A stretch of 64,000 nucleotides of DNA from contig JAEOTR010000053.1 of NCBI GenBank assembly GCA_016839705.1, forward strand, positions 1 to 64,000, written 5' to 3'. The notes beneath the pieces were generated by a model. The model worked only from the letters and a program-made list of their open reading frames with translations. It made no database searches and had not been told where the DNA came from. A program made the translations under genes and the position numbers. Position 1 is the stretch's first letter; each line of letters opens with the position of its first letter. The DNA is from Promethearchaeota archaeon. GTDB taxonomy: Archaea; Asgardarchaeota; Lokiarchaeia; Sigyniarchaeales; SOKP01. Shown one piece after another: positions 25,710 through 30,150 of the stretch.

Positions 25710-26156
25710 TTGAAGGAACTTTACGAGTTAGGTTTTGTCTTTCGAGGATTTGTCCTTGTGAGTTATGATTTTAAAAGTTTACCTGATAAGAAAGAACTTG
25801 GTGTCAATAAAGATCTTAGGGGTGCTTTTATCTCTGCTATAAATGCTTTTGCTGATACCGCGTTCAATAAAAGCTCAATTGAGTATCTAGAATCTGGAAA
25901 TATATTATTTATCTTTAAAATGGCTGAGATTCAATCAAGCGATAATGATTTTAAAGAATCATTAATTTTATATGGTTTAGTTGATAAATCAAAGAAGAAA
26001 TCCGATAAACTTGTTAGGAAATTCTTTGAAAGAATAGATCCAATATTTCAATTGTTTCTTCAAAAATTTAGCGGAGCTAATTTTACTGAATTAAATCAAT
26101 TTGAAAATTTTGAAAAGATTGTAGGAGAATTCTTCATTAAAAAAACAGATGATTGA
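25710..26156 (+). CDS. Stand-alone longin-domain-like protein
   Basis: beta-beta-alpha-beta3-alpha-alpha pattern; DLRGAFISAINAFA helix, IEYLESGNILFIF hairpin, F...F...FENFEKIV end. Confidence 0.65.
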   Translation: MKELYELGFVFRGFVLVSYDFKSLPDKKELGVNKDLRGAFISAINAFADTAFNKSSIEYLESGNILFIFKMAEIQSSDNDFKESLILYGLVDKSKKKSDKLVRKFFERIDPIFQLFLQKFSGANFTELNQFENFEKIVGEFFIKKTDD

Positions 26157-27848
26157 TTATTTTACTAAACTCCATCCTTTTGGCTTAGTTCGAGAATAAG
26201 TAATTATCCCTTGTTCTCTTAAAGAATCAATTTCTTTTTCGATGCTACTTTTATCGAATCCTTTTACGATAATATCGTTAATGAATTGGGGTTTAGTAGC
26301 AATTACTCCTTGATCACTTAAATGTTGGATAATCACATCTTTTAACGATTCACCAGTACTGACTTTTTCGGTTGGTGTTTCCTTCTCTACTGGAACTTTC
26401 TGTTCTGTAGGTTTCACTTTTTCAGGTTCACTGCTGAGGGCTACTCTTAATTTTTCTTTATCTGTTTTGATTGGTTCTTCTATCACCATATGTTTAACTG
26501 ACACTTTCTGTTCTTCAACAGGTACTTCAACTTCCTCTTTTCCTTCTATTTCCTCACCTGGTAGGCTCCAAACAGGATAAACAATTTTTTCATACAATAT
26601 TGATTTCTGAGTGCTCATTATGTCCAATTCATTGGAGATATCTTCTTGATTATATCCTAAATCTGTTAGTTCCTTTACTAAGTCTTTCATATATCCTTTC
26701 TCATTAAGAATTTTGAAGATATGTTCCCTTATATTAGTGGGAACCTCTTTTATATCGGTTAAGTCCTCAATAGCTAAATCCTTCTTCCTTTCACTTATTT
26801 CTGGTTCATCAATCATTTGAGGAATGTTAAGAATTTTTTTTTGACCCCATTCAAAATCAGTTACATTCCTAATAGTACGGTCGTACCCTCCGAACACTAT
26901 ATGTTTTAAATCTGGTTCATTGCCTGTTAGATAACACACATGCTTAATCGATGTAGGGATTTTTGTTTTCCATTTTAATTCGATATCTTTTGAATTCAAT
27001 TCAGGATTATGAAATACCTTCAATGAACCATCGGCACACCCCGTAATAATTTCCAGTGCTTTATCTCCATCTATATCTGCAATTAACACAGAAATCGGAC
27101 GTCCCTCTTCAACTTTAATTTCCTTTACATGCTCTCCCTCGCTATTAAGAATTTTTATTGTGGAATCATCGGTGCCTAATATAATTTCATTCAATCCATC
27201 ATTAGTCACGTCACCAACCTGTATTGTATTGATCTGTGATGAAAAATTTCTATTCCACAAAATTTCAGGAAAGTTATTTTTAATATGAATTAATTGTAAT
27301 ACGCCACTTTTTGTGCCAACTAGTAATCCATAAAGTGATTTTTTCTCATTTGGTAATTTTATAATTCCTAAGGCACATGCCGTAACCCAAGAATCAAAGT
27401 AGAAAATAAATTTTGGCTCCTTTGCTTCAATACTGTCAAAAATCTTGATTGTTTTATCCTCACTGCCAATTATTAACTCGATATTCCCATCCCTCGTTAA
27501 ATCCCCTGCGATGCAACAAATAACTTTTTTAGTAGATTTATATCTCATTAATCCAACGAGTTTTTTCTTTTCTGCATTTAATTTTAACACCATGAAGTTG
27601 CCATCACCAGCACCAACTAATATCTCATCACAACCATCTCCATCTAGATCAATCGGATAACTGCATCGACACCATCCATCGAATACTCTATCATCAATAA
27701 TATTCATTTCTTCATCCATTAAATATAATGTCTTATCATGACCGCCAAAAGCTAAGAAATTTTTATCTTTACATTTCATAACTGAACATGTAAGAACCGC
27801 ATCTGGGCATTCAAAAGTCCAATTCAGTTGATACCGTTTTCTTATCAT
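26157..27848 (-). CDS. FG-GAP-type beta-propeller (BBS2/ITFG2-like) with two C-terminal winged-helix-like domains
   Basis: Repeats DLDGDGCDEILVG, GDLTRDGNIELIIGSED, GDVTNDGLNEIILG, ADIDGDKALEIITG; no signal peptide; two related C-terminal modules ending in WSL. Confidence 0.75.
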   Translation of the reverse strand: MIRKRYQLNWTFECPDAVLTCSVMKCKDKNFLAFGGHDKTLYLMDEEMNIIDDRVFDGWCRCSYPIDLDGDGCDEILVGAGDGNFMVLKLNAEKKKLVGLMRYKSTKKVICCIAGDLTRDGNIELIIGSEDKTIKIFDSIEAKEPKFIFYFDSWVTACALGIIKLPNEKKSLYGLLVGTKSGVLQLIHIKNNFPEILWNRNFSSQINTIQVGDVTNDGLNEIILGTDDSTIKILNSEGEHVKEIKVEEGRPISVLIADIDGDKALEIITGCADGSLKVFHNPELNSKDIELKWKTKIPTSIKHVCYLTGNEPDLKHIVFGGYDRTIRNVTDFEWGQKKILNIPQMIDEPEISERKKDLAIEDLTDIKEVPTNIREHIFKILNEKGYMKDLVKELTDLGYNQEDISNELDIMSTQKSILYEKIVYPVWSLPGEEIEGKEEVEVPVEEQKVSVKHMVIEEPIKTDKEKLRVALSSEPEKVKPTEQKVPVEKETPTEKVSTGESLKDVIIQHLSDQGVIATKPQFINDIIVKGFDKSSIEKEIDSLREQGIITYSRTKPKGWSLVK

Positions 27849-28002
27849 AATTTCTAAAAAGATCCTTCAGATTATGGAATCTTTTGATAATACTTAAAAT
27901 TAACTTTTCTGTTTACTCTAATTATAATTAGCTCAGAATTATTAAAGGATTAGTGTAATATAACTAAAAAAAATAAAAAAGTTAAAAAGAATAGTATTAA
28001 AA

Positions 28003-30150
28003 TTATAATGCTAATTGAGCATCTGATGGACTATATTCACCGGTACCATTAATTTCATATGAGATTTCTAAATTCTCTCCAATATCTAGTACATCAATTT
28101 CCCATCTCAAGGTATCTTGCCCTACTTCATCAGTTATTTCTGGTTTCATTGAATAAGAACCATATTCAAATTGATCTGGAACCTTATCAAGAAGGACCAT
28201 CGTATGCAATTTAGATTCACCAATATTTTCAAGAGTCAAAATAATTCTATAATTACCGAGTTCACCAATTGGAACAACTTCTTTACTTGTACGGAATTTC
28301 CTTCTGATATGAAGAGCTTCAATAATAGGAACTTCAGGTTTGAATTCTAATTCTTGACTAACAGGATATGTATTTGCGTGGTAAACTATTTCTGATTCAA
28401 ACGTGGAATCTCGAGCCGGATTTACACAGTGAATAGGATACTGGAATTCTAAAGTTGAATCTGGTTTAAACATACCTGTGCTAGTATCTTTAAGATTTTT
28501 CAATAAGATGGTAAAAACATCCCCGTCAAGATTGACCGCATCAGAAGAAAGCTCGACTTCATCACCATCCCAAATTAATTTTATTTCGCTTGCACTAGGT
28601 GGTTTATATTCTTCAGTGAAAGATTGTTGTATCACAGTAATTTCGTTTAATGGAGCAGAACCATTATTTGCCATTTTGAGAGTAGCCATAACATCTTGAG
28701 CTTTATAGGTGGGAGTTTCAACCTTATCATATCCCATATCTCCAGTTATACTTGCTATTTCTAATATAACATCTGAGATTGCAACTGCAACAGTCACTTG
28801 ATATTGATAATCAGGAACAACTCGAAATTCAAGTTTCTTCCTAAATGTTGGATAGTCTTCACTTTCATACTGCCATTTAACTGAATGCCACTGAGCTCCT
28901 GATGGTAACATTGGAACATCATTGGGATCAATATCAACGAATTTTGTCCCCTCATCATCAGGAGAGTATACATCAGCATTAAAAAGCTGAATCACGAATT
29001 CAGAAGAGTTATCAAAAATTAATTTATTATCCCAAATGTTTGGTTCTTCGTCTCTTTCAAGAGTATCAATATAAAATTTATTTCGAGTATATGCGTCAAA
29101 TTTATCAATAGCTAAACCTTCGGCAAAAGAAGAAGCTGCTTTATAGGTAACGTCAATAGTACCAGTTCTTCTTCTAGCGATGTCATTTACCATAATATTA
29201 CATGTGAATTTAAGTACAACAGTATAATCTGGTCTTAATTTCTCTATTTTCCAAACAATTTTATCTCCTTCAATTTCTGCTCTTCCTTCTGTTGTATCTC
29301 GTACCACAGGATTTGTAAAATCATCTGGTATGGTTTTGATTACTTCAATATCAGATATAGGTTTATCAAATGTATTTCTTAACGCAATGGCGAATGTAAT
29401 AGTATTTTCTCTATCAATTGAAATGCCAAAGGTCTCTAAACCTGTTTCAACAGCAGTTCCACCATCTTCCCATTTTTCTCCGTCTTCATTTTCTTCTTCA
29501 TCGTCATCTTCTTCTGTAGTTGGTGGTATGGTTACTACAGCTTTTTTAGTTACTTTACCTGTTTTATTTTTAATTTTTAGCAATTCTCTTTCAATATCAT
29601 TGATATTTAAAACGTCATCAGCTTTAGAGAGAGAACTGATAAATTCTTTAACCAAAAAAAGATTTTGGACATCTTTTTTTAATTCAAATTCTTTGGTTTC
29701 TACGTTATCTGGGTACTCCGTACCTAATTCCCTTATTGATATATCTTTCGATTTCAAATTTGTACTAGCAATATTATTGAGTGAAACGTCAATGTCCCAA
29801 AGACGATCTGATTTACTAGGATTTTCTATACTAATTTTTCCTCCAAAGCTAAAAGATTTAACATTAGCGTCATGATCTTGTTTTACTTCGACATCCTCAA
29901 TTATCTTTACTAATGCCAATAACCCTTCTCGGTTACGATCTTTCAATAGTATACTGCCTTCTAGTTGTCCTGTATCTTCGTCATATGTCTCAATAACTGG
30001 TGTAGCAGTGTCTCTATCTACTAGCTTTACTTTTCCGTCATCCATGTCTGTTCTTTTTAACCCTTCTGCTACTAGTTCTTCACCTGCTTCAGATTTATCC
30101 CATCCCATACGTGATGGTTTCTTTTCCTTTTTCTTATCCTTTTTTCCCAT
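28003..30150 (-). CDS. Cytoplasmic beta-sandwich protein with mu-homology-domain-like region and extra Ig-like domains
   Basis: Three ordered blocks resemble adaptin mu / delta-COP C-terminal domain (see findings); acidic insert; no signal peptide or TM. Confidence 0.6.
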   Translation of the reverse strand: MGKKDKKKEKKPSRMGWDKSEAGEELVAEGLKRTDMDDGKVKLVDRDTATPVIETYDEDTGQLEGSILLKDRNREGLLALVKIIEDVEVKQDHDANVKSFSFGGKISIENPSKSDRLWDIDVSLNNIASTNLKSKDISIRELGTEYPDNVETKEFELKKDVQNLFLVKEFISSLSKADDVLNINDIERELLKIKNKTGKVTKKAVVTIPPTTEEDDDEEENEDGEKWEDGGTAVETGLETFGISIDRENTITFAIALRNTFDKPISDIEVIKTIPDDFTNPVVRDTTEGRAEIEGDKIVWKIEKLRPDYTVVLKFTCNIMVNDIARRRTGTIDVTYKAASSFAEGLAIDKFDAYTRNKFYIDTLERDEEPNIWDNKLIFDNSSEFVIQLFNADVYSPDDEGTKFVDIDPNDVPMLPSGAQWHSVKWQYESEDYPTFRKKLEFRVVPDYQYQVTVAVAISDVILEIASITGDMGYDKVETPTYKAQDVMATLKMANNGSAPLNEITVIQQSFTEEYKPPSASEIKLIWDGDEVELSSDAVNLDGDVFTILLKNLKDTSTGMFKPDSTLEFQYPIHCVNPARDSTFESEIVYHANTYPVSQELEFKPEVPIIEALHIRRKFRTSKEVVPIGELGNYRIILTLENIGESKLHTMVLLDKVPDQFEYGSYSMKPEITDEVGQDTLRWEIDVLDIGENLEISYEINGTGEYSPSDAQLAL

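Follow-up and report, generated by a model that had tools for sequence, protein, structure and literature searches.

Asgard proteins resembling parts of the eukaryotic trafficking machinery are used to argue for the complexity of the archaeal ancestor of eukaryotes, and a gene from a Lokiarchaeal genome raises the question of how such a likeness has to be read: what does a protein made of an FG-GAP-type beta-propeller and two winged-helix modules do in the cell, and is its resemblance to BBS2, BBS7 and ITFG2 one of ancestry? The window analysed here, i.e. the whole stretch of 64,000 nucleotides (about 32% G+C), comprises positions 1-64,000 of the forward strand of contig JAEOTR010000053.1 from Promethearchaeota archaeon (assembly GCA_016839705.1, 3.36 Mb and 93% complete), and the gene in question occupies positions 26157-27848 of its minus strand, being present in one copy in the source genome. 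Our analysis favours, at roughly one chance in two, a cytosolic scaffold of a single order of Lokiarchaeia that works with the 715-amino-acid (aa) protein encoded immediately upstream and carries its winged helices as docking heads. The rigid seven-bladed propeller would provide a protein-binding platform, the two heads would act as docking modules on a flexible linker, and the partner would most likely be the 715-aa beta-sandwich protein. The two-gene unit is strongly conserved, and the winged-helix module, previously unclassified, is new here. Both occur in a cultured species, Candidatus Lokiarchaeum ossiferum, and they offer concrete material, a conserved two-gene module and a portable putative docking module, whose partners and location can be determined in that organism.

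Joint conservation and loss with the upstream gene

The locus is made up of the following features, with coordinates given in the window:

26157..27848, minus strand: propeller-winged-helix gene, 563 codons plus stop (open reading frame list and translation)
28003..30150, minus strand: upstream gene for a 715-aa cytoplasmic beta-sandwich protein (Pfam DUF11 only; adjoins the propeller gene in 74 of 77 loci)
27849..28002, minus strand: intergenic region from the 715-aa gene to the propeller gene (alignment of 10 loci)
25710..26156, plus strand: convergent gene for a 148-aa protein, abutting the propeller stop codon (adjoins it in 75 of 77 loci)

About 415 relatives of the 563-aa protein were found, the best 120 of which align over the full length at 62-84% identity; this conservation, together with the single-copy state, marks a protein family far beyond what chance would yield. 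The relatives are labelled Promethearchaeota or Lokiarchaeota, and the full-length propeller gene is a single-copy gene in 114 of the 134 genomes of one GTDB family, being absent as such elsewhere in the phylum. The gene order in the 77 loci fetched runs glycerate kinase, 715-aa gene, propeller gene and convergent 148-aa gene, and this four-gene block is kept in about 75 of them, even where the propeller proteins share as little as 42% identity, with outer flanks that vary. The propeller gene is conserved at the level of the neighbouring metabolic enzymes, which make up its flanks, and no defence genes were found around it. Its single copy, fixed place and enzyme-level conservation point to a cellular role, rather than one in defence or at the surface. 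The same data bear on an alternative according to which the product would be a generic and dispensable FG-GAP repeat protein, serving for example in conflict, in defence or in a surface structure and outside the core functions of the cell. Similar propellers are indeed fused to STAND-type ATPases (P0165), the winged-helix module itself ends a STAND-like nucleoside triphosphatase (NTPase), and several genera no longer have the gene. Nevertheless, a single copy held at a fixed place with such identity across genera, no signal peptide and metabolic flanks free of defence genes all speak against dispensability, which we regard as very improbable.

The strongest functional evidence is the joint loss and the persistent adjacency of the propeller gene and the 715-aa gene. 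Neither the propeller gene nor an ortholog of the 715-aa gene is present in any of the 5 genomes of genus g2 or the 4 of genus g6, most of which are 90-100% complete, or in G172 and G174; where the 715-aa ortholog has been lost, only a distant paralog is detected (E 1e-23 to 1e-31). The 148-aa gene, found in 133 of the 134 genomes of the family, is still present in the four loci of g2 and g6 that were fetched, in three of them about 600 bases from the glycerate kinase gene and in the fourth beside a pyridine-nucleotide oxidoreductase gene. In the sister family (Ca. L. ossiferum and two further genomes, one of them a closed genome of 4.36 Mb) distant homologues of the propeller and 715-aa genes stand side by side once more, there in tail-to-tail orientation. 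Joint loss and an adjacency that survives rearrangement link the propeller protein with the product of the 715-aa gene and not with that of the 148-aa one, and the first two may bind each other. Among RNA runs, only X7, a sediment metatranscriptome present as contigs only, contained sequence words of this stretch; its contigs cover pieces of the 715-aa gene (28003-30030, minus strand), two of them being identical to the window and the rest, about 88% alike, deriving from relatives, and none cover the propeller gene.

The propeller and its kinship

The 563-aa protein consists, in order, of propeller, winged-helix module 1, linker and winged-helix module 2. The propeller and its two conserved loops are placed as follows (pLDDT, predicted local distance difference test):

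26856..27833, minus strand: seven-bladed FG-GAP-type beta-propeller, residues 6-331 (AlphaFold2, pLDDT about 85-95)
27624..27650, minus strand: DLDGDGCDE loop, residues 67-75 (invariant across the family)
27051..27077, minus strand: second loop, DIDGDKALE, residues 258-266 (invariant columns)

The AlphaFold2 model, for which 20 family members were used, arranges 28 strands into seven four-stranded blades of the FG-GAP type, which are followed by a connector modelled with less certainty (residues 332-367). Pfam FG-GAP_3 (45.5 bits) and FG-GAP (26.9 bits) both exceed their cut-offs on this part of the protein, and Beta-prop_CGLA reaches 51 bits. A preliminary description of this DNA had proposed an intracellular FG-GAP propeller with DxDGDG-type loops and no signal peptide, and the model, the Pfam scores and a motif and hydropathy check agree with it. 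The motifs quoted there are all located in the protein (GDLTRDGNIELIIGSEDKTIKIF at residue 115, GDVTNDGLNEIILG at 212, DLDGDG at 67, DIDGD at 258, YPVWSL at 424 and PKGWSL at 556), the N-terminus is not hydrophobic, and a hydropathy scan found neither a signal peptide nor a membrane segment, the top Kyte-Doolittle 19-residue window being 1.49; the protein is predicted to be cytoplasmic. Loops of integrin-type FG-GAP repeats bind metal, and the DLDGDGCDE loop has this form, with D67, D69, D71, G72, C73, D74 and E75 invariant, as are D258, I259, D260, G261, D262 and E266 in the second loop; by analogy, the propeller loops may bind metal. Eight propeller cysteines are also invariant in the family (C14, C21, C26, C62, C73, C111, C112 and C158), including an N-terminal C-x6-C-x4-C pattern and a CC pair, and a metal or cluster site at these residues is possible.

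Structure comparison is of little help in placing the propeller, since a Foldseek search with the complete model yielded nothing but generic WD40 and seven-bladed propeller matches, with BBS2 (6voa_B) at rank 24, and the fold cannot separate propeller families. The likeness to eukaryotic proteins lies in sequence profiles. Among Pfam families Beta-prop_BBS7 ranks first on the 563-aa protein (81 bits), and BBS2_Mid (48.5) and Itfg2 (43) are above their cut-offs as well; the family profile searched against all PDB sequences retrieved only ITFG2 (E 1e-8; 22 bits for the best domain), BBS7 (1.5e-3; 20.6 bits), BBS2 (0.05; 15.6 bits) and one WD-repeat protein. The BBS7 and Itfg2 models match only this gene in the source genome and nothing in any of 14 control genomes. 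The alignments are, however, partial and out of register. The Beta-prop_BBS7 match is broken into three partial stretches, the best of which lays residues 14-151 on model positions 123-265 of 299, and no match runs along the whole BBS7 propeller model, only positions of about 120-295 being matched genome-wide, in this protein by several of its blades. The Itfg2 model, with a cut-off of 27 bits, is covered only over positions 220-287 of 330, and the alignment with ITFG2 of the PDB is composed of two non-colinear pieces, residues 169-284 of the query falling on ITFG2 30-160. Such alignments are to be expected of a shared blade motif rather than of a colinear orthologue. Beta-prop_BBS7 moreover matches in 216 of 400 Asgard genomes, always with the second half of the model and at 30-45 bits, and its signal is therefore a general trait of Asgard FG-GAP-type propellers.

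Six of the best non-family matches of an exhaustive search, all of them long multi-propeller proteins and one from a Ktedonobacteraceae bacterium (annotated PQQ-like), served as a control. All six pass Beta-prop_BBS7 (73-131 bits), BBS2_Mid (96-133) and Itfg2 (64-75, the bacterial propeller scoring 69). With a propeller-only profile, true relatives were aligned as one colinear domain at 108-182 bits, and generic multi-propeller proteins reached 31-64 bits for their best single domain, versus 22 for ITFG2. The ranking of the models does differ, BBS7 being above the generic models for the 563-aa protein and below them for the control proteins. As judged by these scores, the family has its closest outside kin among generic prokaryotic FG-GAP/PQQ-like propellers, and the likeness to BBS2, BBS7 and ITFG2 belongs to the whole repeat class. 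The recall of BBS2 and ITFG2 from two short motifs in the preliminary description thus holds at the motif level, with the Pfam and PDB matches behind it, but not as specific kinship, where the controls outscore ITFG2; a propeller that sides with generic bacterial proteins, which that description named as part of the outcome contrary to its own proposal, is in good measure what the profile scores give.

Side by side, the known proteins differ from the 563-aa protein mostly in what accompanies the propeller. ITFG2 of KICSTOR (PF15907; PDB 25ge, 9o5a), the best sequence match among solved structures, is also cytoplasmic, seven-bladed and FG-GAP-like, with blades of the form GDvxxDGxxEivvG..DG.l.vf, but it lacks a winged-helix tail and only two or three blades align. 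The BBS7 and BBS2 propellers (PF23743, PF14783; PDB 6vbu, 6voa) are cytoplasmic too; 6voa_B gives a template-modelling score (TM) of 0.45 by query length with a root-mean-square deviation of 3.6 over 326 columns, a fold match no better than that of WD40 proteins. Whereas BBS7 and BBS2 possess a coiled coil, GAE and platform domains and a helical C-terminal part, the C-terminal part of the 563-aa protein is made up of two winged helices joined by a disordered linker, and Pfam BBS2_N, BBS2_C and the BBS7 C-terminal domains were not found in it at E values up to 1. The prokaryotic FG-GAP/PQQ-like multi-propeller proteins (FG-GAP_3, Beta-prop_CGLA, Beta-prop_ACSF4) share the blade motif and the DxDGDG loops; these are long, with at least two propellers and often with secretion-type or ATPase domains, in contrast to the single propeller, cytoplasmic prediction and winged-helix modules found here.

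The literature adds little. A 2026 preprint lists a BBS7/ITFG2 cluster common only to Asgard archaea and eukaryotes (PMC13734099), and our searches yielded no description of the cluster going further than this phrase. Our searches found no paper tying Asgard archaea to KICSTOR, FG-GAP propellers or mu-homology domains, and only passing co-mentions of the BBSome or Bardet-Biedl syndrome with Asgard archaea; neither BBS nor ITFG2 occurs in the main text of a 2026 Nature Microbiology catalogue paper.

Another reading would make the protein an archaeal relative specifically of the propeller subunits of the BBSome (BBS2/BBS7) or KICSTOR (ITFG2), which together with its mu-homology-like and longin-like neighbours would form a proto-coat or adaptor complex acting at membranes. 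In its favour, Beta-prop_BBS7 is the top Pfam family with BBS2_Mid and Itfg2 above cut-off, the three eukaryotic proteins are the only named ones with solved structures to be matched by sequence, the models single out this gene in its genome and ignore the 14 controls, the preprint's cluster joins Asgard archaea and eukaryotes, and the three-gene neighbourhood is conserved. Against it stand the generic prokaryotic propellers, one of them bacterial, which pass the same models at equal or higher scores and come closer in the propeller-only profile, the partial and out-of-register alignments, and the absence of BBS2_N, of the C-terminal BBS domains and of coiled coil, GAE and platform. The 715-aa neighbour gave no sequence match to adaptor mu chains when its profile was searched against PDB sequences, and the 148-aa gene stays where the other two are lost. 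A full-length family confined to one GTDB family, with its module confined to one order, is also an ill fit for the ancestor of a eukaryotic complex, and we hold such a kinship to be unlikely.

The 148-aa protein has no Pfam or PDB sequence match, and its secondary-structure pattern, together with a single ESM Atlas row (at 0.89; 34% of its members carry Fuz_longin_1), makes it look longin-like; most genomes of the family encode a second, distant paralog of it (E about 1e-20 to 1e-28, e.g. G000:C97:92649-93050). By analogy, the propeller-winged-helix protein, the mu-homology-like 715-aa protein and the longin-like 148-aa protein might form a Lokiarchaeal membrane-associated coat- or adaptor-like assembly whose heads recruit cargo or machinery. 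Such an assembly would be the analogue, either ancestral or of independent origin, of complexes that combine propeller, mu-homology domain and longin, such as COPI, TSET and the BBSome. This idea builds on fold-level analogies only and is weakened by the narrow distribution of the family and the independence of the 148-aa gene, so that we consider it improbable. Whatever the function of the protein, the Pfam BBS7, BBS2 and ITFG2 models are passed by ordinary prokaryotic propellers too, bacterial ones among them, and catalogue entries resting on them, as well as "BBSome-like" labels of Asgard proteins, therefore need phylogeny before they are read as ancestry.

The winged-helix modules as proposed docking heads

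Behind the propeller, the C-terminal part of the protein contains the following elements:

26559..26747, minus strand: winged-helix module 1, residues 368-430, the divergent and acidic copy, with YPVWSL at its end (models, hhalign)
26352..26558, minus strand: disordered linker, residues 431-499, rich in E, K, V and P (pLDDT about 30-40)
26439..26510, minus strand: linker motif VKHMVIEEP..DKEKL, residues 447-470 (family conservation)
26160..26351, minus strand: winged-helix module 2, residues 500-563, canonical, ending YSRTKPKGWSL (models, fold matches)

Module 2 is modelled with confidence. Residues 501-563 follow the order H1-strand-H2-H3-hairpin (DSSP H-E-H-H-E-E) at pLDDT of about 90-97, and a separate model of residues 362-563 agrees, with module 2 at 94-97. 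VIA Z scores over 60-68 residues are spread over many winged helices, i.e. cullin WHB 9.2, MecI 8.9, SAMD1 8.9, the archaeal MCM C-terminus 8.8, Rpa2 8.3 and Z-alpha 7.9, and Foldseek returned the same kinds of domains at E values of only 0.04-0.25; the modelled fold is that of a winged helix, with no subfamily prominent. In module 1 the AlphaFold2 model contains three helices (373-413) at pLDDT 81-93, and residues 414-498, its wing and the linker, are disordered. The sequence of module 1 nonetheless aligns with that of module 2 (hhalign probability 93%, E 3e-7) and with a profile compiled from 44 modules of many proteins (96%, E 1e-8), YEKxxYPVWSL falling on YSRxxPKGWSL, and by these alignments the two modules are homologous. 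The two C-terminal modules of about 60 aa, ending YPVWSL and PKGWSL, and the E/P/K-rich linker between them (17 E, 11 K, 11 V and 6 P in residues 431-499) had been recognised in the preliminary description; its tandem winged helices are supported in full for module 2, and for module 1 by the three helices and the homology, though not by a confident wing.

What do these modules bind? The third helix of module 2, corresponding to the one through which classical winged helices read DNA, is acidic, E537 and E539 being invariant or nearly so, the mean net charge is -4 for module 1 and +2.6 for module 2, with a range of -6 to +7 across modules, and the best-conserved part of the module is the wing, YSRxxPxGW/Y, and not the third helix. 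Acidic helix 3, charges and wing together fit docking heads better than readers of DNA, and the target of the winged helices would accordingly be a protein and not nucleic acid. Rpa2 (RPA32), archaeal MCM and the cullins likewise bear a small C-terminal winged helix behind a flexible linker of a larger protein, those of Rpa2 and MCM acting in protein recruitment; with none of them is there significant sequence kinship, the module having its own signature, TK...YSRxxPxGW/Y, and 1-5 repeats. The linker itself may contribute. Its motif is 65% identical across the family versus 46% for the whole linker, V451, E457, K464, E465 and L467 are invariant, and it may be a binding peptide; more distant relatives retain a hydrophobic-hydrophobic-I/V-E core of it.

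The main competitor of the docking scaffold would have the modules bind nucleic acid, the protein either tethering a propeller complex to DNA or RNA or serving as a regulator that perceives a ligand or partner through its propeller. DNA binders such as MecI, SAMD1, Z-alpha, linker histone H1/H5 and MarR types are found among the fold matches; the module profile searched against PDB sequences has its best, though weak, matches in winged helices of replication and recombination (Rpa2 E 0.025, MCM 0.066, Hop2 0.077); R553, K555, K557 and T518-K519 are conserved, and module 2 is mildly basic; and the K/P/A-rich linkers of several relatives recall the arrangement of linker histones, whose globular domains are among the fold matches of module 2. 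To this are opposed the acidic recognition helix (E537, E539), the net acidic linker of the 563-aa protein itself and the charge of the modules, negative on average in module 1 and widely varying among copies. Helix-turn-helix and Z-alpha Pfam models gave no match to the modules even at E 5, and 1-5 copies on unrelated head domains fit a docking domain better than a sequence reader. We therefore consider nucleic-acid binding possible but doubtful.

A Z-alpha-type winged helix, as proposed in the preliminary description on account of the wing, does not find support beyond the fold. Z-alpha domains (ADAR1, ZBP1, PKZ, E3L) are winged helices of the same size with Pro and Trp in the hairpin wing, and in an alignment made by hand the wing Pro and Trp coincide with those of the module, but E537 and D/N541 take the places of the Asn and Tyr of helix 3 that contact Z-DNA. 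Dozens of other winged helices match the fold as well as Z-alpha does, no Z-alpha chain appeared in the PDB sequence search with the module profile at E values up to 10, and helix 3 is acidic. As to the suggested link to ESCRT-type partners, nothing was found tying the 563-aa protein to ESCRT: there was no Pfam match to ESCRT-II and none among the 50 fold matches listed, and the modules lie about 70 disordered residues apart and are not packed. No Pfam family covers the module, for which only sub-threshold likeness to the MCM C-terminal winged helices was seen, and ESM Atlas likewise gave only sub-threshold rows for the C-terminal part (0.80-0.82), with hints of MCM winged helices. An identity with DUF5817_CT was considered and rejected, one module of P0140 being matched and the 563-aa protein and the other modules being without it.

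Several observations weigh against the docking scaffold and its partnership with the 715-aa protein. The wing of module 1 is modelled with low confidence. Module 2 is mildly basic (mean +2.6), its wing has conserved R and K, and the K/P/A-rich linkers of relatives resemble linker-histone tails. The genomes with strong synteny all belong to one GTDB family, so that shared ancestry inflates the synteny count. Finally, the 10 aligned loci share oligo-T runs in the intergenic region, directly behind the stop codon of the 715-aa gene, and further on a conserved TTTAATAA box; the former probably represent an archaeal terminator and the latter a TATA box, and with these oligo-T runs and an A/T box of its own for the propeller gene the two genes are probably transcribed separately.

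Distribution and other architectures of the module

Distant Asgard relatives combine the same propeller with disordered linkers and 1-5 copies of a 62-residue module, recognised by TK at the start of helix 2 and by the ending YS(R/K)xxP(R/K)G(W/Y). In the source genome the module profile scores 87.5 bits on the 563-aa protein and finds nothing else significant, and among 400 Asgard genomes it is restricted to the window's own order, with no occurrence in other families. Within the order, the GTDB families carry the module as follows:

f1: 110 of 134 genomes
f2: 1 of 1 genome
f3: 14 of 14 genomes
f4: 2 of 4 genomes

A search of a collection of 5.8 billion proteins yielded 117 module-bearing proteins, nearly all of them carrying the propeller or being fragmentary, and including NEF87_004104 of the cultured Ca. 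L. ossiferum. The module was also seen in a few further architectures, in each of which it is C-terminal and preceded by a disordered linker. In two genomes of genus g12 it ends a 740-aa STAND-like NTPase (L096:2576-4798 and L097:200-1471, both on the minus strand) with the P-loop GSGGTGKTT and weak AAA_22, AAA_16 and NACHT matches. In another protein (L093:3019-4197, minus strand) an Ig-like domain (Big_13) and one membrane helix are followed by a K/P/E/A-rich tail with the module at its end, an architecture which implies that the module can be membrane-tethered on the cytoplasmic side. The closed 4.36-Mb genome (G135) has a propeller gene for 383 aa without winged-helix tail (L089:8630-9781, plus strand), and its module resides on a separate lysine-rich, basic protein of 235 aa (L092:3425-4132, plus strand), about 3.7 Mb from the propeller gene, in what looks like a split form. 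A likeness of the N-terminus of the 235-aa protein to ribosomal protein L13e was dropped, as Pfam gave nothing.

Two further observations concern relatives of the 563-aa protein. In genus g13 (e.g. G272:C73 and G274:C113) the propeller of a 1021-aa protein, P0132, is preceded by about 490 additional N-terminal residues, which consist of helical repeats of about 40 aa and form a solenoid-like domain. Some records bearing the locus, L060 (DATKTW010000130.1) and several DZ, H3B and TM bins, go under the labels Nanopelagicaceae bacterium, Thorarchaeota, Hermodarchaeota, Hodarchaeota or Odinarchaeota; these are probably mislabelled or mis-binned.

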